DNA from: Nanobdellati archaeon
GTDB taxonomy: Archaea; Nanobdellota; Nanobdellia; Woesearchaeales; JAADFO01
Reading direction: 5' to 3'
Assembly (NCBI GenBank): GCA_013152815.1
Contig: JAADFO010000020.1
Span: 1 to 42,058, forward strand
Length of the DNA: 42,058 bases
Part shown: piece after piece, positions 20,312 to 39,699 of the stretch
How the letters are laid out: every line of letters starts with the position of its first letter
Numbering within the stretch: the first letter of the stretch is position 1
Made by a program: the position numbers and the translations under genes
Notes under the pieces: generated by a model
Seen by the model: the letters and a program-made list of their open reading frames with translations, nothing else
What the model was told of the DNA's origin: nothing
The model's database searches: none

Positions 20312-20504
20312 GCCAAGCCCTTACTTCCCGGCAGTATATATGTATTTTGTATCATGGGCGTGCGTATCATAGACAAGGAAGAGCAGAGCCACAGCATCCA
20401 CTAGATTTATAAAGCCAAATAATATCTTGAAGGACAACAAGAAGAAAGAAAGCGACAAGAAAGCGTCAAGAAGAGAAAGGCAAGAAGCAAAAAAAAGAGG
20501 TCCT

Positions 20505-21497
20505 ATGCCCTTGATGGAAACCTATCGCCAGACAAAGGCAGACTGGAAACGTTTTCTAGAAGCACTCATGAAAGGCAGGGAGCTCATAGCTCCGGTGAAG
20601 AGAGACCTCGTACGTTTCGAGCGGGTCAAGGACATCGAGGACATCCACCTGAAAAGCATGTCCTATTTCCCTGCAAAGCACTGGTTCTTCCCTGAAGAGC
20701 AGACCCTGTTCCGTTTCTCCAAGAAAGGCTTCGAGATGCCCAAGCAGAAAGAGCCTCGCAGGGTGTTCTTCGGACTACGGAAATGCGATCTCAACGCCAT
20801 CAAGCATCAGGACATGGTCTTCATCAAGCAGGCAAAGGATCCCTACTACAAAGCACTACGGAAAAAATCTTTGCTATTAGGATACCATTGCAGGACCGCG
20901 CCCTCGCCGTTCTGCTTCTGCGAATCGTTGGGATTGCCTGATTTCTTCGACCTTCTCTATTACGAGCGAAAGGATCATTTCGTGGTAGAGGTCGGGTCGG
21001 CGAAGGGAAAGGCGCTGGTCAAGAAATACGGAAGATGGTTCCACGCCGAGAAGGGACTCACCCCAGAGCAACGCAGGATCAAGAATGCTGACACGCTTGA
21101 GGAGACAGACATAGGAAGGTTCTACGACCATCCAGGATGGAAAGAAGGCGTGAACCTCTGTCTCTCCTGCGGAGCATGCACAGCACTCTGTCCGACCTGC
21201 TACTGCCACTCCATCCATGACGAGGTGACCGTGGCAGACCCGGGCAGCGGCGAACGGAAAAGGCAATGGTCAAGCTGCCAGCTCCAGGGCTTTACCAAAG
21301 TGGCAGGAGGCCATGTCTTCAGGAAAGACAGGGAGTCAAGGTTCAAGCACCGGATCTACCACCAGCTGGAATGGTTCAGGGAAAAGAACAAGGTTCCCCT
21401 ATGCACAGGCTGCGGTCGGTGCATCCAGGGCTGCCCGACGAGGATCGACTGGGTAAGCATGATCAACAGGATGAAAGATGACGAACACAGGACATAG
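20505..21497 (+). CDS. hydB: Group 3b [NiFe] (sulf)hydrogenase beta subunit, 4Fe-4S
   Basis: CLSCGACTALCPTCYC and CTGCGRCIQGCP; GAGGT SD before ATG 20505. Confidence 0.92.
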   Translation: MPLMETYRQTKADWKRFLEALMKGRELIAPVKRDLVRFERVKDIEDIHLKSMSYFPAKHWFFPEEQTLFRFSKKGFEMPKQKEPRRVFFGLRKCDLNAIKHQDMVFIKQAKDPYYKALRKKSLLLGYHCRTAPSPFCFCESLGLPDFFDLLYYERKDHFVVEVGSAKGKALVKKYGRWFHAEKGLTPEQRRIKNADTLEETDIGRFYDHPGWKEGVNLCLSCGACTALCPTCYCHSIHDEVTVADPGSGERKRQWSSCQLQGFTKVAGGHVFRKDRESRFKHRIYHQLEWFREKNKVPLCTGCGRCIQGCPTRIDWVSMINRMKDDEHRT

Positions 21498-22302
21498 CCA
21501 GGAAGAGAACCCTCTCCAGCCCAGGCCATACCGTGTGAGGGAATACTATCGGGAGACGCCCGACACCTTCACGCTCACCATAGATATGGCTGTCGACCAT
21601 GACCCTGGCCAGTTCGTGCAGGTGAGCCTTCCCGGCATCGGAGAGAGCCCCATCTCGATCTGTTCGGACTCCAGGAAGTTCATCAAGCTCAACATCAGGG
21701 AAGTGGGCAGGGTGACGAGAGAGCTTGCAGGACTACGGAAAGGGGACACCGTCTTCCTTCGGGGCCCCTATGGCAAGGGATATCCTATGGAGCAGCTCAG
21801 GGGCAATGACCTCATCATCGTCGGGGGAGGATGCGGAATCGCTCCGTTGAAAGGCACCATCGACTATATCGAGAACCACCGGGAAGCGTATGGAGAAGTC
21901 AACCTGTTCATCGGCTACCGTTCCCCCAAGGACATCATCTTCTCCAGAGAACTGGAGGAATGGCAGCAGAAGTACCACCTCCATGTCATGGTCGACCAGA
22001 ACCCCGCAGGGGAGTTCTGCTACGACGGCAGGACCGGGTTCGTGACCGAAGCCATCAGGGAGAAGGTGCAGGACAACCGCAACAAGGTGGTGTTCATCTG
22101 CGGCCCGCCGGTCATGATGAGAGCAGTCATAGGAATCCTCCAGGAGAAGGGCTTCAACGACGACCAGATCTTCGTCTCTGCAGAACGGCTCATGTTCTGC
22201 GCCATCGGGGTCTGCTGCCATTGCATGATAAAGGGGAAGTTCACATGCATCGACGGTCCGGTATTCAGGTATGACCAGATCAAGGAGGATGAGCAGGAAT
22301 GA
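21478..22302 (+). CDS. hydG: Group 3b hydrogenase gamma subunit (FAD/NAD(P), 2Fe-2S)
   Basis: PGQF, RGPYGKG, GGGCG, ICGP, CAIGVCCHC...CIDGPVF. Confidence 0.93.
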   Translation: MTNTGHSQEENPLQPRPYRVREYYRETPDTFTLTIDMAVDHDPGQFVQVSLPGIGESPISICSDSRKFIKLNIREVGRVTRELAGLRKGDTVFLRGPYGKGYPMEQLRGNDLIIVGGGCGIAPLKGTIDYIENHREAYGEVNLFIGYRSPKDIIFSRELEEWQQKYHLHVMVDQNPAGEFCYDGRTGFVTEAIREKVQDNRNKVVFICGPPVMMRAVIGILQEKGFNDDQIFVSAERLMFCAIGVCCHCMIKGKFTCIDGPVFRYDQIKEDEQE

Positions 22303-23099
22303 GCAGAGCAAAGAATCCTGGAAAGCCAAGACAGCCCAAGAAGCTCAGGGTCGGCATCTATGGGATAACAGGCTGCGCAGGCTGCCAACTCTCCATCATC
22401 TTCAACGAGGATGATATACTGGACCTGCTCGATCTCGTCGACCTCCAGGCATTCCCCTTCATCAAAGAGGTCAATGCAGACCAGCATTTCGACTGGGTGA
22501 TCGTCGAAGGCCTGGTCGCCTCTGAACAGGATCTCGCGACGGTCAAGAAGCTGCGCAGGAACGCGAAATACCTCGTGTCGCTCGGTGCGTGCGCGGCCAC
22601 CGGCTGCGTGCCGGCATACCGGCAGTTCACCCTGAAAGAGAACTATGAACATCTCCTGTACAGGAAACAGAAGCGCCTCAAAGATGTCGAACCGACACCC
22701 ATCGATGCACACGTCAAAGTGGACTATTATATACCGGGCTGCCCGCCGGACAAGAAAGAGATACTGGGCTTCTTCACCGCGATCGCGAGAGGGATCGAAC
22801 CCAGGGGGACCGACAATCCGGTCTGCGTCGAATGCCGGAAGAACGGAAACGCCTGTCTCCTGGACCAGGGAAAGCCCTGCCTCGGGCCCATCACTGCAGG
22901 CGGCTGCCATGCGGTCTGCATCAACGGAGGGCTGGAATGCTGGGGCTGTCGCGGCCCCACCAAAGACATGAACCTCAACCTCATGATCGACATCCTCCGG
23001 AAGAAAGGCTTCGACGACAGGTTCATCCGTGATAGGATGCGGACCTTTGCCGGCCTCAAGCTGCCGACGCTCAACAGGATATTCCACGGAAAAGGATGA
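22299..23099 (+). CDS. hydD: Group 3b hydrogenase small (delta) subunit
   Basis: GCAGC, VEG, GACA, PGCPP, CVEC...CLGPIT..GC...C...CWGC. Confidence 0.93.
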   Translation: MSRAKNPGKPRQPKKLRVGIYGITGCAGCQLSIIFNEDDILDLLDLVDLQAFPFIKEVNADQHFDWVIVEGLVASEQDLATVKKLRRNAKYLVSLGACAATGCVPAYRQFTLKENYEHLLYRKQKRLKDVEPTPIDAHVKVDYYIPGCPPDKKEILGFFTAIARGIEPRGTDNPVCVECRKNGNACLLDQGKPCLGPITAGGCHAVCINGGLECWGCRGPTKDMNLNLMIDILRKKGFDDRFIRDRMRTFAGLKLPTLNRIFHGKG

Positions 23100-23134
23100 T
23101 GAACACCCGATAAAAGGGATGGACAGGGCACCAC

Positions 23135-24409
23135 ATGACACGCACGATAAAACTGGACCACATCTGCAAGATCGAAGGGCACGCCTCCCTCACGCTCTCC
23201 ATAGACAAGGGCAGGCTGAAAAGATGCGAACTGGGAGCCACCGAAGGGGCAAGATATTTTGAGGGCATCGTCAGAGGACGGAAATACAACGAAGCCCATG
23301 AGCTGACCTCGAGGATATGCGGCATCTGTTCGTCTGCCCATGTGGTCTGCGCATTGCACGCCATCGAGGATGCGCTGGGGATGAAGACGAGCAGACAGAC
23401 AGAAGATCTAAGGGTCCTGCTGACCCTTGCCGAACGCATCCGTTCCCATGCCACCCACCTCTACTTCCTCGCCCTGCCTGATTATCTCGGCTATGAATCA
23501 GCCCTGGCCATGGCACCGAAGTTCAAGAAGGAACTGCAGCAGGCATTGCGGATCATGAAGACAGGGAACCGGCTCAACGCCCTGCTCGCAGGACGGGACC
23601 TCCATCCGGTATCGGCGACCGTCGGAGGCTGGCTCAAGCTCCCCAGGACAGAAGAGCTGCGAAGCATGGCCAAAGAGCTCAAGGCAGTCAAGAAAGATGC
23701 CATCGCCACCTGCAGGCTGTTCTTCTCGCTCGAGCAGCCGACCATGGAGACCGAGAGCGAGTTCTTCTCCCTCAAAGACAGGAAAGGGTTCGCTGTCCTC
23801 AGAGGAGATTTTACCTCAGCACAGGCATCCTTCCCCAAGGAGCAGTACCTCGACTTCATCAGGGAATACCACCGACCCTATTCGACGGCAAACTTCGTCG
23901 TCAAGGACGAGAAAAGGTACATGGTGGGCGCGTTGGCAAGGTTCAACAACAACGGGGAGCAGCTCTCCCCTTCTGCAAGGAAGATGCTCAGGGAATCAGG
24001 CATCGCCTTGCCCTCCCGGAACCCGTTCATCAACAACCTCTGCCAGGCCATCGAGATCGTCCATTGCATCGACCATGCCATCGACCTCTGCGCTACCATC
24101 ACCATCAAGCAGGAGAAGCCGAAGAAGGCAAGAGTCAGAGCAGGCAGGGGCGTAGGATGCATCGAAGTCCCCCGGGGGACGCTCTGGCACGATTATACGT
24201 TGGATGAGCAGGGCATCATCATCAACGCCAACATCATCACGCCGACGGCCCAGAACCTCCTCTCTGCCCAGGAGGACATCAGGACATTCGTCTCCGGCCA
24301 TCTGGACATGAAGAAAGACGAACTCATCATGGCTGTCGAGAAGCTCATCAGGGCCTATGACCCCTGCTTCTCCTGCTCTGCCCATTTCCTAGAGGTGAAA
24401 TGGGAGTGA
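23135..24409 (+). CDS. hydA: Group 3b [NiFe] hydrogenase large (alpha) subunit
   Basis: L1 RICGICSSAH, EVPRG, L2 DPCFSCSAH plus a short cleavable tail. Confidence 0.96.
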   Translation: MTRTIKLDHICKIEGHASLTLSIDKGRLKRCELGATEGARYFEGIVRGRKYNEAHELTSRICGICSSAHVVCALHAIEDALGMKTSRQTEDLRVLLTLAERIRSHATHLYFLALPDYLGYESALAMAPKFKKELQQALRIMKTGNRLNALLAGRDLHPVSATVGGWLKLPRTEELRSMAKELKAVKKDAIATCRLFFSLEQPTMETESEFFSLKDRKGFAVLRGDFTSAQASFPKEQYLDFIREYHRPYSTANFVVKDEKRYMVGALARFNNNGEQLSPSARKMLRESGIALPSRNPFINNLCQAIEIVHCIDHAIDLCATITIKQEKPKKARVRAGRGVGCIEVPRGTLWHDYTLDEQGIIINANIITPTAQNLLSAQEDIRTFVSGHLDMKKDELIMAVEKLIRAYDPCFSCSAHFLEVKWE

Positions 24410-24414
24410 AGAAG

Positions 24415-24771
24415 ATGTATGTCTTCGGGAACGAGCACCTTCCGGAGGATGCCTTCGCGTTGAAGGTGGCGGACCACCTCCGTCTGCAGGGTGTCTCCAT
24501 CGTGCACTGCACGACCCCGGAGAGCCTGCTCGAGGCAGAGGAGGACGAGCTCATCATCCTCGACGTGGTCAAGGACCTCGCAGAACCTGCAGTGATAGAC
24601 CCGGACAGGATCAGGACCAACAGGATGATGTCTCTCCATGACCTTGATGTCGGGCATATCATCGAGCTCGGACAGGCCATGGGCATCATCAAAAAGCTTA
24701 AAATCATCGGGGTTCCCCAGAAAGGGAATCCGCAAAAAATCGCAGAACAGGTGAAGCAATGGATACCATGA
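24415..24771 (+). CDS. Short hydrogenase maturation protease (HycI/HyaD-like); start could also be 24400 or 24406
   Basis: FGNEHLPED, IILD, SLHD; directly follows the large subunit. Confidence 0.75.
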   Translation: MYVFGNEHLPEDAFALKVADHLRLQGVSIVHCTTPESLLEAEEDELIILDVVKDLAEPAVIDPDRIRTNRMMSLHDLDVGHIIELGQAMGIIKKLKIIGVPQKGNPQKIAEQVKQWIP

Positions 24772-25703
24772 AACAAAACAGTCTCCTGAAAAGGAACGGT
24801 CTGCTGCTGGTCAGTTTCACAGCGCTCATCTCAGGCATCTCCATCTTCGTCAACGGTTTCGGCGTGAAGGGCTTCGACAGCTCGGTGTTCACGTTCTCGA
24901 AGAACCTGATGGTGGCGCTCCTGCTTGCAGGCATCCTCCTGGGCTTCAGGGAATGGAAGCACATCAGGGAATTGACCGGAAAACAGTGGAGACAGCTGAG
25001 CATCGTCGGCCTGGTGGGCGGGAGCATACCGTTCCTGCTGTTCTTCAAAGGGCTGCAGATGACGACCGGAAAGACCTCAGGATTCATCCACAAGACCCTG
25101 TTCATCTATGCGACCATCCTGGCCATCATCTTCCTCAAAGAACGGTGGAACAGGAATCTTGTCCTGGGCATCACCGGCATCATGGCCGGCAACTACCTGC
25201 TCATCAGGCCTGACCTGACATTCAGCACAGGTCACATCCTTATCCTCCTGGCGACCCTTTTCTGGGCCGCGGAGAACGTCTACGCCAAGAAGGTGATGAG
25301 GGAACTGTCAGGCACGGTCGTCGGCTTCGGCAGGATGGCCTTCGGGAGCGCATTCATCTTCGTCTATCTTCTTGTCACAGGAAAGACAGAGACCATCGTC
25401 TCGATGAACGCCTCCCAGTACCTATGGATCCTGGTCACCTCGGCATTCCTGCTGCTCTATGTCTTCACCTACTACAACGGCCTGAGACAGGTACGGGTAA
25501 GCACAGCGACGGGCATCCTGGCCCTGGGCAGTCCCATCACGACCCTGCTCGCATTCCTGTTCACCGGAAAGGTCATCTCTGCCAGCGCGGCAGGCGGCAT
25601 GCTGCTCATCATCGTCGGTGTAGCCGCCATCGTCTGGGGAGTCCCACTCTCGACACTGAAGGACAGCCAGGGTGTGCAGGGTGTGGTGCATGGACGGAGC
25701 TGA
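24768..25703 (+). CDS. DMT/EamA family transporter
   Basis: About 10 TM in two repeats; FLKER motif; ATGA-coupled to the protease gene. Confidence 0.9.
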   Translation: MKQNSLLKRNGLLLVSFTALISGISIFVNGFGVKGFDSSVFTFSKNLMVALLLAGILLGFREWKHIRELTGKQWRQLSIVGLVGGSIPFLLFFKGLQMTTGKTSGFIHKTLFIYATILAIIFLKERWNRNLVLGITGIMAGNYLLIRPDLTFSTGHILILLATLFWAAENVYAKKVMRELSGTVVGFGRMAFGSAFIFVYLLVTGKTETIVSMNASQYLWILVTSAFLLLYVFTYYNGLRQVRVSTATGILALGSPITTLLAFLFTGKVISASAAGGMLLIIVGVAAIVWGVPLSTLKDSQGVQGVVHGRS

Positions 25704-26421
25704 ACTCTGCATACGTTTTGCCTACATAACGAACAAGCTACGTTACTGCGGACCGGAGAAGGCACAGCCAGCATTCCATCGCTATCTGCTGCACCGAGAC
25801 AACCTTCCCGAGGTGCGGGAGGACATCAGACGCTTCGAAGGGCTCTATCCCTACCTTGATGCCATAGCGAAGAAGGCAGGGAAAGACTTCCTCGACAGGG
25901 AGGTGGTCGAAGCCTACTGGCTGGGCAATGGACTGCTCGACGGTTTTTCTGACGCAGAGATGAAGGACGTCATCAGGAGCCTGGAGGCGAGGGGACTGCC
26001 AGCCTCCATCGCCAGGAAACGCATCGATGAACTTCCGCAGGGGATGTTTCCCCACCATGACTTCAATGTCTTCTACGTCGGGGTGGGCAACATCACCCAG
26101 AGTGTGGAAGCTACCCTGCCGAACATGGACAACTGCAGGATCGGCTGGGGAAAGGTGGTCGAGGTGGTCTCCAAGGACACTGCCCTGGTGATGACCCCGG
26201 CCCTGCAGAAGAAAAAAGGGAAGATAGCGATGGGCAAAGAAGAGCCAAAGACCGTCGTGTTCCTGCCGGAGGTCACCTCGGTTGCAGAAGGCGACCTCGT
26301 CGCACTCCACTGGGGATTTATCGTGATGAGACTGAGCAGGGAGCAACAGTACCGGCTGCAGACATATCAAGAAAGGCTGCTGAGACAGCTAGGCGGACCA
26401 GGAAATCAGCCTGTGGCCTGA
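25690..26421 (+). CDS. DUF6390-like protein
   Basis: RFAY..N.L.YCGP, FEGLYPYL, VVEAYWLG, PHH.F.V, MDNCRI.WG, GD.VALHWG. Confidence 0.75.
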   Translation: MDGAELCIRFAYITNKLRYCGPEKAQPAFHRYLLHRDNLPEVREDIRRFEGLYPYLDAIAKKAGKDFLDREVVEAYWLGNGLLDGFSDAEMKDVIRSLEARGLPASIARKRIDELPQGMFPHHDFNVFYVGVGNITQSVEATLPNMDNCRIGWGKVVEVVSKDTALVMTPALQKKKGKIAMGKEEPKTVVFLPEVTSVAEGDLVALHWGFIVMRLSREQQYRLQTYQERLLRQLGGPGNQPVA

Positions 26422-26615
26422 CGGTAGAGCGCAAGAGCGTCCTCGGCCTCTTTTCGAGGGACCTTCTCGATGACAATACCGCCCTGGATGATGACATAGT
26501 CGTCCACAGCAAAACCGTCGGCGATGAGCTTTCCCGGGCGTCGTTCTGACCCGTAGTCGACGATGGCCATGTCCTTCTCTATCTTCACGATCCTCCCGGG
26601 CACAGCAAGGCACAT
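26406..26615 (-). CDS. hypC: HypC/HybG hydrogenase chaperone
   Basis: MCLAVPGRIV N-terminus; TGATG overlap with hypA. Confidence 0.9.
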   Translation of the reverse strand: MCLAVPGRIVKIEKDMAIVDYGSERRPGKLIADGFAVDDYVIIQGGIVIEKVPRKEAEDALALYRQATG

Positions 26616-26938
26616 CAGTCCTTCACCTCGACACTCTGGATCCTGATGTCTGTGCCCGAGATCAGGTCGGGCATGGACTTGCATTCCGGGCATTCGATGA
26701 GGAAGTGGTCGTGGCCCCGTTCGAGGATGGTGGGATGGCCGATGAACCCGCAGGAGCAGGTCGCCTTCGCCGGCACCTCGTGCCATTCGATACGCCAGGA
26801 CACCATCTTCCTGAGCGCTTCGACAAGGTCTTTGCCAGGGACATGGGCAAGCTCTCCTATCTCCAGATGGATGGCCTCGACGTCTCCGTATTTCCTGGCT
26901 TCCTTGATGATCTTCTCTGCGAAGGCTATCTCATGCAT
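26615..26938 (-). CDS. hypA: HypA nickel metallochaperone
   Basis: MHE N-terminus, IGEL, CSC...CPEC. Confidence 0.93.
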   Translation of the reverse strand: MHEIAFAEKIIKEARKYGDVEAIHLEIGELAHVPGKDLVEALRKMVSWRIEWHEVPAKATCSCGFIGHPTILERGHDHFLIECPECKSMPDLISGTDIRIQSVEVKD

Positions 26939-26994
26939 GCAGACACCAGAGGGAGCGGAGTTTATAAGAATTTCTGGAATCAGTTAAAAAAGCC

Positions 26995-27098
26995 AGTTAA
27001 AAAAAAAGAGGCTCCCCGAGGGTTGATGAGGGGGGTGGTTGGTTAGAAATTAGGGTTTCAGGGAGCCCTTGGCGGTTAGAGAGTGAATTTCTCTAATC
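26995..27098 (-). ncRNA. Candidate sRNA 1 (C-rich loop hairpin plus U-tract)
   Basis: TATA TTTATATA at 27118-27125; 5' hairpin 27076-27096; 11-bp stem with G-U pairs only on the minus strand; followed by T9; no ORF. Confidence 0.55.
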
Positions 27099-27143
27099 AC
27101 ATCAATAGCATAGGAACTATATAAAGGTTTCTATTTTGAGCTA

Positions 27144-27167
27144 CCAGTATAGTTAAAGGTATACTGG
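27144..27167. promoter_or_regulatory. Palindromic operator-like site CCAGTATA-N8-TATACTGG
   Basis: Perfect 8-bp inverted repeat just upstream of the 27118-27125 TATA box. Confidence 0.45.
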
Positions 27168-27236: not shown

Positions 27237-29123
27237 CTAGCTTCCGAAGAACTCCTGTATCAATGTCTCTGGTTCGATTGAGATGTTCACCCCCATGTCC
27301 TCTGGGAAGTGCTGACGGTAGTTTGGCCAGGCATAGCGTTCGTCGAGGAAGACGATGACGCCCTTGTCGGTCTCGCTGCGGATGCACCTGCCTGCCCCCT
27401 GCAGGGTCTTGTTGAAGGCCGGCAACACATAGCCGTAGAGCCAGCCCTTGGCGAAACGCCGGTCATAGTAGTCGATCAGGGCCTTGGTCTCGAGGTCAGG
27501 ACGGTGGAGCGGCAGGCCGACGACGATGACCCCCTTCAGAAGGTCTCCCGGAAGGTCGATGCCTTCGGCGAAATTCGCAGAGGAGACCGCCAGCAGCACG
27601 GCACCTGCATCCTTGTAGGTCTTGAAGGTCTCCAGCATCTCGAACTTCTCGTCCTTTGTCAGCCTTGGATCTTCCTCCATGACCGTCTTCTTCGAGATGA
27701 TCCTGAAGTACATGCCGACCTCCCGCATCAGGAAATAGCTGGGGAAGAAGATGATGAGGTTGCCGGGGACCGCAGCACTGATACGGGAACAGTGCTCGGC
27801 GATGTCTTTATATTGCCGGTCTGAACGCAGGGTGAACTTGGTCGTCGTCCTGGGGACGATGAGCGAGAGACGGTTGCTCATGGGAAACGGGTTGCCATAG
27901 GTAATGCATTCGCTGTCATCGGGAAATCCCAGCACATCCCGATACATCCCGGTCGGTGAGAGGGTCCCTGACATGATGATGGTGGAATGGGCATCCTTGA
28001 TGACCGGAGCAGTCAGAAGAGACGGGTCGAGGCATTTGTACTTGAGCGTGATGAGCGGCTGACGGAACCCCTGCTTGAGGTCCACGGTCCGGACATAGCC
28101 GTCATCCTCCCCTTTCCAGAGAGTGAGAAAGGCAGAGACCCTCCCGAGGAAGGATTGTTTCTTCTCCTCCCTGACCGTGTCAGCAGCCTCTTCGAAACGG
28201 TCGATGAGGTCATCATACTGGTCAAGGGTCCCCAACCCGTCCATGAACTGGTCCCTGCGCACCAACCGTTCCCCGCCCAGTTCCAACGACCGTGACAGCC
28301 CGACCAGGATATCCTGCAGGAGCGAAAGCTCTTCTATCAGCTCAGGGAAGGCGTGCTTCTTGGCCTCCTTGATGGCCTGGAGGATGACATAGGAGGAAAG
28401 CTGGACCGAGGCCAGGTCACGTATCCTCCCCGGAAGGTTATGGCCTTCGTCCACGATGATGACAGCATCAGAGAGATCCTTGCCTATCCTGTTGAGAAAG
28501 TTCTGCCGGATTCCCGGATCGAAGAGATAGAGATAGTCGGCGACGATGACACGGGAGCTTGCCGAGAGCAGGGCAGCCATCTCATAGGGACAGAGTTCGG
28601 CATCCTCTGCCACAGAGAAGATACGCTCTGTATGGATGGGGCTCAGCCGTTTCATGTCCTCCAATGCAACCTTCGCCTCGACGGTGAACTTGCCGTTCTT
28701 CTGCCTTGCCCTGCTGTAGAAAGCGCAGGCGTGGTCCTCACGCATCCGTTTGCAGTACTCGTTGAAATCCCCGCCCCGCATGTCCTTGATGCCCGGCTGG
28801 AGGCACATCCACCGTTTGCCTATCATGTCCGATGCCACCAGGGTCTGGAGATGCGCCTCTTTGATGTGCTGCAGGGTCTCGATGGCTATCTTGTGCTGGG
28901 TGTGCCGTGAGGTGAGAAAATAGATGGTGAGGTCCTTCTTCTTGGCGACAGAGAGCGCGGGACCGAGGGTGGAGACGGTCTTTCCGAGACCGGTGGGCGC
29001 ATGGATGACCGCACTCTTCCCTGACTCGATGATGTCCCTGACCTTTTTCAGCATGTCCTGCTGGACGGCCCGGACATGCGCATAAGGAAACAGCAGGCTT
29101 TTCCTGTCGTCGGAGGAGAGCAT
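27237..29123 (-). CDS. xpd: XPD/Rad3 (DinG family) Fe-S DNA helicase
   Basis: APTGLGKT, four Fe-S Cys including CPYE, DEGHN, SGTL, QGAGRCIRS. Confidence 0.95.
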   Translation of the reverse strand: MLSSDDRKSLLFPYAHVRAVQQDMLKKVRDIIESGKSAVIHAPTGLGKTVSTLGPALSVAKKKDLTIYFLTSRHTQHKIAIETLQHIKEAHLQTLVASDMIGKRWMCLQPGIKDMRGGDFNEYCKRMREDHACAFYSRARQKNGKFTVEAKVALEDMKRLSPIHTERIFSVAEDAELCPYEMAALLSASSRVIVADYLYLFDPGIRQNFLNRIGKDLSDAVIIVDEGHNLPGRIRDLASVQLSSYVILQAIKEAKKHAFPELIEELSLLQDILVGLSRSLELGGERLVRRDQFMDGLGTLDQYDDLIDRFEEAADTVREEKKQSFLGRVSAFLTLWKGEDDGYVRTVDLKQGFRQPLITLKYKCLDPSLLTAPVIKDAHSTIIMSGTLSPTGMYRDVLGFPDDSECITYGNPFPMSNRLSLIVPRTTTKFTLRSDRQYKDIAEHCSRISAAVPGNLIIFFPSYFLMREVGMYFRIISKKTVMEEDPRLTKDEKFEMLETFKTYKDAGAVLLAVSSANFAEGIDLPGDLLKGVIVVGLPLHRPDLETKALIDYYDRRFAKGWLYGYVLPAFNKTLQGAGRCIRSETDKGVIVFLDERYAWPNYRQHFPEDMGVNISIEPETLIQEFFGS

Positions 29124-29333: not shown

Positions 29334-29603
29334 ATGACGAACAAGAATATCTTCAATGTCTTTTTCCGTGAGAAACCTGCCATGATGCTTGTCAAGCTCA
29401 ACACCTCAAAATCAGATATCTACGCGAGCTCGCTCGCGAAACTCATCGACTGCACCTACTCCCATGTCGTCAAGATACTCCAGGCGATGGAAAAGGCAGG
29501 CCTCGTCAACTTCGAGAAGCAGGGACGGCTCAAGCTCCTCACGCTGACGAAGAAGGGCCAGGAAGTCGCCACCCACATCGAGCATATCAAGAACCTGTTC
29601 TGA
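29334..29603 (+). CDS. Small winged-helix transcriptional regulator
   Basis: YASSLAKLIDCTYSHVVKIL...GR.K...LTKKG. Confidence 0.88.
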   Translation: MTNKNIFNVFFREKPAMMLVKLNTSKSDIYASSLAKLIDCTYSHVVKILQAMEKAGLVNFEKQGRLKLLTLTKKGQEVATHIEHIKNLF

Positions 29604-30474: not shown

Positions 30475-30561
30475 AGATTATCATGACACAGATTATCATG
30501 ACACAGATTATCATGACACAGATTATCATGACACAGATTATCATGACACAGATTATCATGA
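30475..30561. repeat. Perfect 15-bp tandem repeat AGATTATCATGACAC, 5.8 copies
   Basis: Read directly; no spacers. Confidence 0.97.
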
Positions 30562-31243: not shown

Positions 31244-31349
31244 GGGCCCGTAGCTTAGCCTGGTGGAGTGCCCGATCCGTCCAGAACGTTTCTAGGCGGA
31301 GGCAATACTGATAATCGGGTGGTCCCGTGTTCAAATCACGGCGGGCCCA
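31244..31349 (+). tRNA. tRNA-Ile(GAT) with a 32-nt intron (31275-31306) at position 30/31
   Basis: Acceptor GGGCCCG/CGGGCCC; T arm CCGTG-TTCAAAT-CACGG; anticodon stem CCCGA/TCGGG after splicing; BHB motif; TATA at 31211-31218; CCA not encoded. Confidence 0.93.
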
Positions 31350-35868: not shown

Positions 35869-37092
35869 CTATTTCTCTCTCAGCAAAGCAGTATCCTCAA
35901 GCATGCGCATGAGCAAGTCAACCTCCTCCTTCGTGTTGTAGAGGTAGAAGGAGACTCTTGCCGTCCCCGGGACGCCCAGGACATCATGCAGCGGCTGGGC
36001 GCAGTGATGGCCGGTCCTCAACGCCATCCCTCTGGTAGCTGCGAAGGAAGCGATGTCGAAGGGACTGATGCCCTCCATGACGAAAGAGATGACCCCTGTC
36101 CTGTCCTCTGCCTTCTCCGGACCGAATATCTTCATCCCTCCGATGCCGTCGAGCTGCTCCATCGCGTATCCTGTCAGCGCGACCTCATGTTCCCTCACCG
36201 CATCCATGCCGACCGTCCTGAGGTAATCGACAGCAGCACCAAAGCCAGCGACGCCTGCCATGTTTGGAGTACCCGCCTCGAACCGGTGGGGAGGCTGCTG
36301 GAAGGTCATCTTCTCCAGCGTGACCTTCTCGATCATCTCGCCACCGCCCTGATAGACCGGCAGCTCCCTGAGCAGCTCTTCCTTCCCGTACAATGCGCCC
36401 ACGCCGGAAGGGCCGAGCATCTTATGGGCAGAGAAGGCATAGAAGTCTGCATCAAGCTTTTTTACATCGACGGAAAAGTGAGGCACAGATTGTGCTCCGT
36501 CGACGACAAAGACGGCACCGGCATCGTGGACGATCTCTCCCGCGGCCCTGACATCGACGATGGTCCCCAACACGTTTGATGCGTGCGTCAGGGAGACTAT
36601 CCTTGTCTTCGACGAGAGTGACTTCTTAAGCTGTTCCAGGTCGAGCTTCTCCTCGTCGATGAGAGGGACATACTTCACCTTCACTCCCCTGCTCTCCAGC
36701 AGCCGCCAGGGGATCATGTTGGAATGATGCTCCATGACAGAAAGGACGATCTCATCACCCTGCTGCAGGCCTTTCCCCAGAGAAGAAGCGAGCAGGTTCA
36801 ATGATTCAGTGGTGTTGCGGGTGAAGACAAGTTCCTGTGGCTCTGCGGTGATGAACGAAGCGACCTTCTCTCTCGATTGTTCATACAGGGCGGTCGACTC
36901 CCGGGCAAGGCCATAGACGCCCCGATGGACATTGGCGTTGTGATTGCGATAATAATCAGAGACCGCGTCGATGACCTGCTTCGGTTTCTGGGTGGTTGCC
37001 GCGTTGTCGAGGTAGATCAATGGTTTGCCATCGAAGGTACGCGACAGCAGCGGGAAATCCTCCCTGAGAGAGGCAGCATCAAGCACGGGCAT
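35869..37092 (-). CDS. sufS: Cysteine desulfurase SufS
   Basis: YLDNAATTQKP, EHHSN, DGAQS, SAHKMLGP, RTGHHCAQP. Confidence 0.97.
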   Translation of the reverse strand: MPVLDAASLREDFPLLSRTFDGKPLIYLDNAATTQKPKQVIDAVSDYYRNHNANVHRGVYGLARESTALYEQSREKVASFITAEPQELVFTRNTTESLNLLASSLGKGLQQGDEIVLSVMEHHSNMIPWRLLESRGVKVKYVPLIDEEKLDLEQLKKSLSSKTRIVSLTHASNVLGTIVDVRAAGEIVHDAGAVFVVDGAQSVPHFSVDVKKLDADFYAFSAHKMLGPSGVGALYGKEELLRELPVYQGGGEMIEKVTLEKMTFQQPPHRFEAGTPNMAGVAGFGAAVDYLRTVGMDAVREHEVALTGYAMEQLDGIGGMKIFGPEKAEDRTGVISFVMEGISPFDIASFAATRGMALRTGHHCAQPLHDVLGVPGTARVSFYLYNTKEEVDLLMRMLEDTALLREK

Positions 37093-38299
37093 CACCTAGG
37101 CGTTGCAGGATCATCTTCCTGAACCGTTCCTGCACATCCTTCTCAGGGATGGTGCCGACGAGCTGGTCGAAGAAACCCATCACCAGGAGGGATGACGCTT
37201 CTGCGGCAGAAAGGCCGCGGCTCATCATGTAAAAAAGTTCATCCTCGTCGACCATGCCGATGGTCGAGCCATGGGATGCCTGGACATCGTCGGCATCGAT
37301 CTCCAGCGACGGGATGGAGAAGCTGTGCGCCTCTGGACTGAGATTCAACGTCTTGTCGTCAAGGAACGATGAGGTGTCCCGGGCCTTCTTGTCGATGACG
37401 ATCCGCCCCTGGAAGATAGAGGATGCTCTGCCTGTCAGCACACCCCTGTTCTTGATGTCTCCTCCGGTGTGCGGCACCCGATGAAGCGCCTCGCTGAGCA
37501 GCTGGACCTGCTCCCTGCCCTTGGCGAAGAAGACGCTCTTCAGGCTGCCCTCTGCACCGGGACTGCTGAAGATCATCCGGGATTTCCCCCGCACCTTGCC
37601 CCGGGGGAACCAGCCTTCATACCATCGCAGACGAGCATCGACCCCCAAAGACACCGACCGATAGGCAAAGCTATGGGTATCTTCGGCGTCATGCTGGAGC
37701 GTGAAGAAGTCGACCTGGGCAGCCTCTCCTGCGATCATCTCAAGGAACACGGTGTTGAACGGCCCGGAAAGATCCGATTCGAAAAGAATCGATGCGTGAA
37801 CATGATCCCCCACGTCCAAGAAAAGATGGACAAAGGCGTTCTCTGCAGCACGTGCAGGGTCCCTGGCCCTGAGCAGGATGTGCAACGGCCTGTCGAAGGT
37901 TGCATCATCATCCAGCTTCACATAGATGCTGTCGTTGAGGAAAGCATAATGGAGGGAGGTCAGCTTATCGGTCGGAGGGATGATCCTTCCGAAATGTTGT
38001 GAAACGCTGTTCTTTTCCTTGATGGCACGGGCAAGCGGCATCAGGGATACCGAAGCAGGAAGAGCAGAACCGTCCAGCAGAGCAATCTCGATGAAATCAC
38101 CGGTCTTTGTCCAGACGAGGGGGGACAGGTCGAGCTCCTGGATACGGGTATATCGCCATTCCTGGATCCTGTCGTCGGGAAGCGGCAGACGATGGAAATC
38201 CAAGAACGCTTTTTTCCTCAGGTTTGTCAGGAGCTCTGGCTCATCCCTGTCCTTCGAGAAGGACACCAGCTGTTCTTGGGACACGTCGAGGAGCCTCAT
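37079..38299 (-). CDS. sufD: Fe-S assembly protein SufD
   Basis: [25 protein letters not shown]. Confidence 0.93.
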
Positions 38300-39699
38300 C
38301 CTACGCTGCCCTCCATCTCCAGTTGGATGAGCCGGTTGAGTTCCACCGCATATTCGAACGGCAGTTCCTTGGTGAAGGGCTCGAAGAACCCTGAGACGAT
38401 GAGCGAGAGGGCATCTTCCCTGGAAAGTCCCCTGCTCATCAGGTAGAAGAGGTCATCGTCAGAGATCTTTCCGACAGAGGCCTCATGGCCGATGCTTACC
38501 CTGTCGTTGGCTATGTCCATAGAGGGCAGGGTATCTGAGCTGGATTCAGGGTCGAGGATGAGGGCATCACAGTTTACCGATGCGGTGACGTTTTTCGCGT
38601 CCTTTGACACTTTGACCAACCCCCGATAGACGGTCTTCCCCCCGTCGAGGGAGATGGACTTGTTCGTTATCTTGGAGGAGGTGTTCGGGGCGAGATGGAT
38701 GACCTTGGCGCCTGCATCCTGATGCTGGCCTTTTCCTGCGAGGGCGATGGAGAGTATCTCTGCGCTCGCGCCTTCCCCGACCATCACGACGGCAGGATAC
38801 TTCATGGTGAGCCTGCTCCCCAGATTGCCGTCTACCCATTCCACCTTGGCTCCCTGGTGGGCGATGGCCCGCTGGGTGACCAGGTTGTAGACATTGGTGG
38901 ACCAGTTCTGGATGGTGGTGTAGCGGATGTATGCATCTTTATGGGCGATGAGCTCGACGACGCCGGCATGGAGCGAAGCGGTGGAATAGTTCGGGGCAGT
39001 GCAGCCTTCTATATACTGGACCGAGGCACCTTCCCCGGCGATGATGAGCGTTCTTTCGAACTGGCCCATGTTCTGGGCGTTGATGCGGAAATAGGCCTGC
39101 AACGGGAAATCTATCTTCACCCCTTTGGGCACATAGACGAAGGACCCGCCGGACCATACAGATGAGTTGAGGGCTGCGAGCTTGTTGTCGTCCGGCGGCA
39201 CCACGGTGGCGAAGTATTTCCTGAACAGGTCGGGGTGCTTCTTGAGTGCCGTGTCGATGTCGCAGAAGATGACGCCCTTGTCCTCCAGCTCTTTCTTGGT
39301 CTTGTGGTATATCATCTCAGAATCGTACTGGGCACCGACGCCTGCCAGGAATTTACGCTCTGCCTCGGGAACGCCAAGACGCTCGAAGGTCTCCAGGATA
39401 TCCGGCGGCACGTCCTTCCAGTCGTCTGCTATCTTGTCTGTGGGCTTGAGATAATAGGTCAGCCTGGAGAAATCGATGGAGGAAAGGTCAGCACCCCAGG
39501 CAGGAAGAGGACGTCGCAGGAACTCTTTCAACGAACTGAGCCTGAAGTCAAGCATCCATGACGGCTCTTTCTTGAAGGCAGAGATCTCCCGGACGATCTC
39601 TTCTGTGATGCCTGGTCCTGTACGAGCGACGTGATGCTCTTGCTTGGAGAAGCCGTACTTCGTCGCATCGTTCCTGAACAGGGATTTCTTGACCGCCAT
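38296..39699 (-). CDS. sufB: Fe-S assembly protein SufB
   Basis: [37 protein letters not shown]. Confidence 0.97.

Follow-up and report, generated by a model that had tools for sequence, protein, structure and literature searches.

Results and discussion

The intergenic region between xpd and hypA in this Woesearchaeales genome (1.49 Mb, 76 contigs) raises the question of whether a short sequence devoid of genes encodes a small RNA of its own, and what the C-rich loop of such an RNA might pair with. The region was analysed within the window, by which we mean the whole 42,058-nt stretch of DNA, and in related genomes. The comparative data point to a real and apparently undescribed small RNA hairpin, present in most sampled genomes of the order Woesearchaeales. 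Its C-rich loop changes in step with the ribosome-binding site of a microprotein gene, and the RNA probably switches off translation of that microprotein.

A minus-strand hairpin between xpd and hypA

The features of the locus are given in the reading direction of the minus strand.

27237..29123, minus strand: XPD/Rad3-family helicase gene, upstream neighbour (NCBIfam rad3 above cut-off; Pfam)
27144..27167 (27167-27144), no strand: operator-like palindrome CCAGTATAC-N6-TATACTGG, 5' of the TATA box, from sequence
27118..27134, minus strand: BRE/TATA promoter, from sequence; its context is AACCTTTATATA here and commonly AACATTTATATA in relatives
27125-27118, minus strand: TATA box TTTATATA, from sequence
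26999..27097, minus strand: predicted transcript of ~97 nt, with a presumed start near 27095 and a presumed 3' end
27096-27076, minus strand: 5' hairpin UUAGAGA/UCUCUAA, 7 bp with a 7-nt loop, from the MFE fold; outside the order-wide core
27058..27068, minus strand: 5' arm of the conserved stem, GGGCUCCCUGA (fold, alignment, covariation)
27020..27057, minus strand: 38-nt unpaired C-rich loop with conserved UUCU and ACCACCCCC (ensemble fold and motif counts)
27029..27045, minus strand: predicted seed, 17 nt long and fully complementary to the region around the SD of a small ORF (contig C39 of the source genome, G000, 196-180)
27009..27019, minus strand: 3' arm of the conserved stem, UCGGGGAGCCU (fold, alignment, covariation)
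26999..27007, minus strand: U9 tract, likely terminator, separated from the stem by one C
26615..26970, minus strand: hypA with its own TATA, downstream neighbour; other genes occupy this place in relatives

An earlier note on this DNA had described a TATA box, a 7-bp hairpin, an 11-bp stem, a C-rich loop and a U9 tract on the minus strand, and all of these are found where it had placed them. The two imperfect pairs of the stem (27068-27058 with 27019-27009) are a G-U at the outer end and a U-G at pair 9, G-U pairs on the minus strand as had been claimed. Folding of 26995-27125 gave z=-4.02 for the minus strand (0/200 shuffles as good) and z=-1.45 for the plus strand (16/200), and each base of the loop is ~90% or more unpaired in the ensemble. 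The 5' hairpin is found in G001 with one A-U to U-A swap, and is missing from G003. The same BRE/TATA context lies 5' of the RNA, or of a leaderless host gene, in relatives. As leaderless host genes on this promoter mostly start 24-26 nt after TTTATA, transcription would begin near 27095, and the U tract suggests where it would end. The description of the element as lacking an ORF also holds, with none of at least 70 aa on its strand and short frames that vary between relatives rather than being conserved. Two features had escaped the earlier note, namely the palindrome at 27167-27144 and a separate pyrimidine tract just 3' of the xpd stop codon, at 27236-27192.

Neither neighbour accounts for the element. 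A TATA-like TTCTTATAAA at 26970-26961 serves hypA, as had been noted, and relatives keep the hairpin beside unrelated downstream genes, so it is not a hypA leader. The element could instead be only the terminator of xpd, or a chance hairpin; it does lie 170 nt downstream of xpd and end in U9. However, xpd has its own pyrimidine tract, while the hairpin has its own promoter, a conserved loop sequence, a covarying stem and copies that lie hundreds of bases from xpd or have no xpd nearby. This reading is further contradicted by the strict-pattern control (0/401 matches), the stem covariation and the test of cognate pairing described below, and we find it barely credible; xpd is better seen as a frequent syntenic neighbour of the RNA than as part of it.

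An RNA family across Woesearchaeales

A BLAST search among 40 relatives returned one clear homolog, likewise behind xpd. The region 3' of xpd was read in 30 of 40 matches (one of them mis-parsed), and the element stands directly behind xpd in four other genomes and farther downstream in more. A strict pattern matched 51/401 genomes (54 sites), against 0/401 for the reversed-pattern control. The covariance model that the earlier note had called for was built from relatives, and it describes an order-wide family with a covarying stem. It matched 111/146 genomes at E<=0.05, a count that takes in the training genomes and some weak matches to a paralog or to the opposite strand. In a phylum sample, for which the number of outside-order genomes covered is not fully listed, 89/146 genomes matched, only four of them outside the order and weakly.

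Support for the stem comes from an alignment of 35 copies, in which 89.4% of cells are paired and two-sided changes are seen at 7/11 pairs (0/500 shuffles scored as high). In a model-fitted alignment of 66 matches, six of them opposite-strand duplicates, two-sided changes are seen at 11/11 pairs, a result that leans towards the model. Isolated stem defects in the 60 non-duplicate matches comprise 20 G-U, 7 A-C and 29 others, and the excess of G-U over A-C favours an RNA on the strand assigned to the element. The 15 nt after the stem contain on average 8.3 T in the sense and 5.6 in the antisense direction (60 copies). Within the loop, UUCU is present in 60/60 of these matches, CACCCC in 50/60, ACCACCCC in 41/60 and CACCUCC in 1/60, frequencies that are partly circular because the motifs helped to pick the training set. 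The stem core GGCUCC/GGAGCC is near-invariant, beyond what base-pairing explains, which suggests recognition by a protein partner.

The element belongs to neither an Rfam family nor an archaeal guide-RNA class. Rfam gave no match at the gathering threshold anywhere in the window, and at E<=5 four loci (L116, L127, L122 and L203) gave three weak matches far below gathering, none on the element, which settles the Rfam check proposed in the earlier note. Archaeal C/D box guide RNAs carry a C box (RUGAUGA) and a D box (CUGA) that flank the guides; here no conserved C box was found on the RNA strand, and a CUGA sits in the stem and is not conserved. H/ACA guide RNAs have a lower stem, a pocket, an upper stem with a K-turn and a 3' ACA; here there is no upper stem and no conserved ACA, and the tail is U-rich. 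When strict patterns were run against viral contigs nothing matched, and metagenome contigs gave a single match. Our literature search returned no account of such an RNA in Woesearchaeota or DPANN, although large motif-discovery supplements could hold one. Five genomes flagged as unpublished (G114, G134, G207, G209, G211) enter the strict-pattern, covariance-model, microprotein-profile, recurrent-site and GGGGGUG-scan tallies, the microprotein SD count (G207) and the 270-gene SD background; they are absent from the alignments and co-variation tests, and no conclusion rests on them.

Embedded and stand-alone copies

Of the 60 non-duplicate matches, 40 lie downstream of a winged-helix gene, most less than 50 nt from its stop codon, 14 follow the same promoter without that gene, and six have other contexts; tandem copies of the hairpin also occur. 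The proposal of an independent RNA is supported by the comparative data, with the refinement that the stand-alone form is a minority and that most relatives carry the hairpin within the apparent 3' UTR of a protein gene. The host protein (~135 aa, N-terminus MVILFD) was found in 69/71 genomes, and its Atlas clusters belong to Woesearchaeota/Nanobdellota. Its fold prediction is confident (pLDDT 91), and a fold search gave generic winged-helix likeness, with every match at Z<8; the best Pfam match is weak (E 0.1). From 94 loci taken, 83 were parsed, and a G-run at the SD position was seen in 0/34 RNA-hosting copies, most of them leaderless, versus 30/49 other copies, these copies not being phylogenetically independent.

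The sole copy in the source genome (on C43) is of the non-hosting kind and has no hairpin 3' of it. The simplest history would be that the host gene was lost from between promoter and hairpin while the RNA was retained. A quick tree of the winged-helix proteins was poorly resolved, with 15 label changes, and gave no clean two-clade paralog split, so that the order of events was not recovered. Where the winged-helix gene is missing, the space between promoter and hairpin may be taken up by a short ORF or a long leader, as at loci L087, L088, L102 and L103. Bacterial 3'-UTR-derived sRNAs such as CpxQ and MicL are encoded at the 3' end of a regulon mRNA, have the terminator in common with it, and depend on Hfq and RNase E or on internal promoters. 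Compared with these, the Woesearchaeales RNA alternates between embedded and stand-alone forms.

The prevalence of embedded copies might mean that the hairpin works in cis, as a terminator or stability element at 3' ends, its loop and stem binding a protein that coordinates several mRNAs and its stand-alone copies serving as a sponge or being remnants. In line with this are the 40/60 copies downstream of the winged-helix gene, mostly less than 50 nt from its stop, the nearly invariant stem sequence and the related hairpins described below, one kind behind ftsZ (16 genomes examined) and another behind an AbrB/MazE-like operon of the source genome. The tandem copies are also reminiscent, by analogy, of protein-titrating RNAs, which are arranged in tandem. 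We nevertheless consider a purely cis-acting role unlikely, as it does not predict genome-specific complementarity to the leader of the microprotein gene, and stand-alone copies keep an intact operator and promoter in several families.

The loop fits a rare variant of the ribosome-binding site

The 3' end of 16S rRNA is the canonical GAUCACCUCC in 4/4 relatives read. GAGGUG, the commonest SD here, precedes 74/1350 called genes, and GGGGUG precedes 13/1350. The loop has a C at the position of the anti-SD's U, and it therefore mismatches GAGGUG and fits GGGGUG. The earlier note had proposed complementarity to G-rich SD-like sequences; we see that this applies to a rare variant, GGGGGUG(G), which the loop fits, and that the common GAGGUG is not matched. 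A general mimic of the 16S anti-SD was rejected, as CACCUCC occurs in 1/60 and CACCCC in 50/60 copies. The 16S rRNA was likewise rejected as a target, there being no GGGGUGG site within the 16S segments scanned. As a background, 270 other genes in the relatives' loci were read, and GGGGUG precedes 2/270 and a G-run of four 35/270.

In a scan for promoter-proximal GGGGGUG, genes that we take from their first residues to be PCNA-, Lsm- and TBP-like recur with GGGGGUG SDs among the 150 of 157 rows listed (G070, G019, G105, G094; G030, G020, G097; G091, G099) and are possible further targets. As a separate observation, the 16S of four relatives (L110-L113) reads AAGUCGUCACAAGG, which differs by a single base from the primer site usual for the 1492 region.

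An unannotated microprotein gene as the best-supported candidate target

Elsewhere in the genome the loop has a sole perfect complement of at least 14 nt. It is 17 nt long (C39:196-180) and covers the SD of an ORF of ~45 aa, 5' of which are an operator half-site and a TATA-like box.

G000:C39:180-31 (L109), minus strand: microprotein ORF with an apparent AUC start; homologs at loci L215-L244 and L268-L287

Of 1346 start regions ranked by duplex energy, this one comes first at -39.0 kcal/mol, ahead of a runner-up at -35.8 and a mean of -11.1 (sd 4.9). The ORF belongs to an unannotated family of basic proteins of 35-60 aa with the motif HKQIE.R.G..FMR.KKR, conserved in 68/201 genomes with a 3-sequence profile and in 64/201 with a 26-sequence profile, two or three of these being doubtful. 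The homologs are unnamed or hypothetical, save for one apparently stray name; searches of Pfam and the PDB gave no convincing match, and the Atlas no usable one. In three genomes of the same family, the gene follows purH and a small Cys-rich gene.

From 51 homolog loci, found by protein profile alone, 47 could be scored for their SD. GGGGUG was present in 30/47 and a G-run of four in 43/47, and the operator lies 5' of 20/47. An in-frame AUG ahead of the conserved motif is missing from 12 of the 27 copies scored first, and in 10 an AUU or AUC stands 5-7 nt after the SD, suggesting non-AUG initiation. Against an SD-masking interpretation, start sites in this order not uncommonly carry G-runs of four (the 35/270 above), and selection for a strong SD could result from a non-AUG start alone. 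The microprotein genomes that gave no match to the RNA model in our listing (G014, G015, G049, G060, G098, G110, G177) were read by hand; all seven have AUG starts and only one has GGGGUG. A relaxed scan finds a divergent hairpin in G060.

A small ORF paired with a complementary RNA calls to mind type I toxin-antitoxin systems, in which a small toxic protein is silenced by a usually linked antisense RNA. The microprotein would then harm its own cell, with the RNA as antitoxin, and the very small basic ORF, its weak start codon and perfect pairing over the SD of up to 16-17 nt would all be in keeping. However, RNA and ORF are unlinked, single-copy and chromosomal, with differing distributions, and the ORF is present in genomes without an RNA model match (for example G014, G015, G049, G098, G110 and G177). 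The protein also has no long hydrophobic stretch. We judge such a pair very unlikely.

Loop and microprotein leader co-vary

In a test centred on the SD, cognate duplexes in 28 genomes were 2.40 kcal/mol stronger than predicted from row and column means (p=5e-5). G080 (whose match is a different hairpin), G072 and G180 (both unparsed) were left out. When each family was represented by a single genome and the discovery genome was dropped, the values were p<5e-5 and p=0.009. When the flanks around a fixed SD core were shuffled (25 shuffles), the effect was -0.75+/-0.35 kcal/mol (minimum -1.59), compared to the observed -2.40.

Because picking of the SD could bias this test, it was repeated on 30 genomes with a fixed window, the 150 nt that precede the protein motif. 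Cognate pairs had a longest perfect complement of 9.4 nt on average, and foreign pairs one of 7.9 nt (p<5e-5); thinning to a single genome per family and leaving out G000 again gave p<5e-5 (24 genomes, two choices). Complements of at least 13 nt were found in 6/30 cognate pairs (17 nt in G000, 16 in G072, 14 in G101, and 13 in each of G099, G146 and G164) and in 1.6% of foreign pairs, while 16/30 cognate pairs have a longest complement of at most 8 nt, and in many the match is limited to the core of 6-8 nt. The conserved UUCU/UCU finds a partner in AGAA/AGA, immediately 3' of the SD, in G072 and G136. A control window 150 nt farther upstream gave no cognate signal (28 genomes, p=0.67). The genomes are not independent, and thinning to family level lowers the effect of kinship without removing it.

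Leadered winged-helix paralogs with G-run SDs were tried as a second target and rejected, as they show no cognate co-variation (p=0.43, 21 genomes). In the source genome, the duplex with this paralog reaches only -19.5 kcal/mol, and its SD lies inside a hairpin of its own.

The pairing could in principle work in reverse, the microprotein leader being a sponge or antisense of the hairpin RNA, or of mRNAs that end in the hairpin, with other G-rich-SD mRNAs as the main targets of the RNA. This would suit an RNA that is far more widespread than the microprotein ORF, and an operator that is often common to both transcripts (20/47 scored ORF copies). We see only a slim chance of it, as the leader belongs to a conserved protein-coding gene, the paired region runs exactly from SD to start, which is the usual geometry of repression, and no other co-varying target was found.

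A predicted SD-masking RNA

We think it rather probable that the hairpin is a trans-acting RNA masking ribosome-binding sites of the GGGGGUG type, with the microprotein gene as one real target. At the sequence level it has the promoter and terminator expected of an SD-masking sRNA, in that promoter, operator and U tract are conserved and no ORF is, and it has an accessible seed that co-varies with the ribosome-binding site of an unlinked mRNA. In the mechanism that we propose, the promoter and its conserved palindromic operator would give rise to a transcript ending in a stable stem with a long single-stranded loop (UUCU...ACCACCCCC) and a U tract. In most genomes the hairpin RNA would be made as the 3' UTR of the leaderless winged-helix gene and presumably released from that mRNA; in the source genome, where this gene is absent from the site, the promoter would yield the ~97-nt RNA alone. 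The loop would then pair with mRNAs reading GGGGGUG(G) instead of the usual GAGGUG at the ribosome-binding site, and the duplex, covering this site up to the start codon, would block 30S binding. The best-supported target would be the microprotein gene, many copies of which appear to start at AUU or AUC and many of which carry the same operator. As about three quarters of genomes have the RNA but only about one third the microprotein ORF, the ORF cannot be the sole reason that the RNA is kept, and other targets or roles are likely.

The predicted mode of action has parallels. In the relevant passages on RoxS of Bacillus subtilis, this sRNA binds the SD of the ppnkB and sucCD mRNAs and inhibits initiation (PMC5419742), and in RoxS and other Firmicutes sRNAs with C-rich regions, unpaired C-rich regions pair with G-rich sequences (PMC5419742), as predicted for the Woesearchaeales RNA. 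Unlike RoxS, the present RNA is archaeal, has a single loop of 25-50 nt on one stem, is mostly embedded in a 3' UTR, and has no Rfam match. sRNA162 of Methanosarcina mazei acts on a transcription-factor cistron and on a cis target, according to the passages concerned (PMC3510493); in contrast, the present RNA is conserved across a DPANN order, and no homology between the two was detected in a comparison made via Rfam. By analogy with what these sources describe, the RNA would act like RoxS and sRNA162 (PMC5419742, PMC3510493), yet it belongs to no Rfam family.

Few archaeal sRNAs have a known target, and in the literature that we searched those that do belong to methanogens and halophiles in culture. 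The present RNA is near-core in a large DPANN order without cultured members, and its target, backed by sequence co-variation, makes it ready for an in vitro test. The analysis also brings to light a microprotein family, so far unannotated, that appears to start at AUU or AUC, and suggests that a single SD base could be a way to address chosen mRNAs.

Related hairpins and a shared operator

Two paralogous hairpins are found in the source genome.

G000:C46:3601-3662 (L203), minus strand: ftsZ-type paralog hairpin, with stem GCCUUCA/UGAAGGC, a loop containing ACCACCCCCAAC, and UUCU just before the stem
G000:C71:12482-12580 (L391), plus strand: long-loop (AbrB-type) paralog, between an AbrB/MazE-like operon of two genes and the promoter of scpA, which it precedes

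Both have the same C-run. The ftsZ-type hairpin lies 3' of ftsZ in 16 genomes examined, the source genome (C46) included; besides L203 its loci are L184-L192, L195-L197 and L199-L201, and it is in tandem in some genomes. Recurrent GGGGTGGT...ATGAAGGCAAGAA sites were considered as targets of the RNA and rejected, being the reverse complement of this paralog hairpin. A role for the ftsZ-type loop as a reader of UUGGGGG sites was also set aside as unconvincing (12/30 versus 10/47). Separately, a recurring GGGAAAAAGAGGTGA motif followed by hairpins occurs at G000:C71:12439 and 3' of the RNA in L079, L084, L096, L097, L099, L100, L104 and L105. A second RNA, encoded on the opposite strand, may end at this motif, whose reverse complement resembles the true anti-SD.

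In relatives, too, the palindrome is found in half or full form 5' of the RNA or of the gene that hosts it. In the source genome, it or a half-site lies within 170 nt 5' of 11/1350 called genes, among them ftsZ, a ParA-family ATPase gene and scpA; unrelated genes are among them too, so a 'division regulon' is only partly supported. CdrS and aCcr1, ribbon-helix-helix proteins of Haloferax and Sulfolobales, recognise a palindromic site at promoters including that of ftsZ, as given in the passages concerned (PMC8406309, PMC9976878), and the palindrome here is similarly placed at promoters including ftsZ. Its half-site, AGTATAC, is similar to the aCcr1 box of 9 bp in its published form (PMC9976878), a likeness of motif only. 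Unlike CdrS and aCcr1, the linked protein here has a predicted generic winged-helix fold and is a candidate operator binder. The CdrS and aCcr1 passages concerned make no mention of an SD-masking RNA (PMC8406309, PMC9976878).

It is possible, though we would not rate it as likely, that these elements form an RNA layer on the division programme of Woesearchaeales. Sibling RNAs with C-rich loops, produced from the 3' ends of the winged-helix gene, ftsZ and the AbrB-like operon, would read private GGGGGUG sites and gate a few mRNAs, including that of the non-AUG microprotein and the leadered paralog of the regulator. If true, archaea that depend on a host and have genomes of only ~1 Mb would possess a conserved timing circuit of the feed-forward kind. 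The findings bear on division control in DPANN archaea, given a conserved operator common to ftsZ, a ParA-family gene and scpA.

Some further features of the window may be recorded. A small winged-helix transcription-factor gene (29334-29603, plus strand) is divergent from xpd; in G024 (L193), the homolog of this gene carries the operator together with a GGGUGGUU SD. A sulfhydrogenase-type NiFe hydrogenase operon with hyp maturation genes occupies 20427-26938, and suf genes lie at 35869-39699. A tandem 15-bp repeat of about six copies (30477-30556) is intergenic, downstream of the S15 gene, and a tRNA-Ile(GAU) gene with a 32-nt intron lies at 31244-31349 on the plus strand (ARAGORN).
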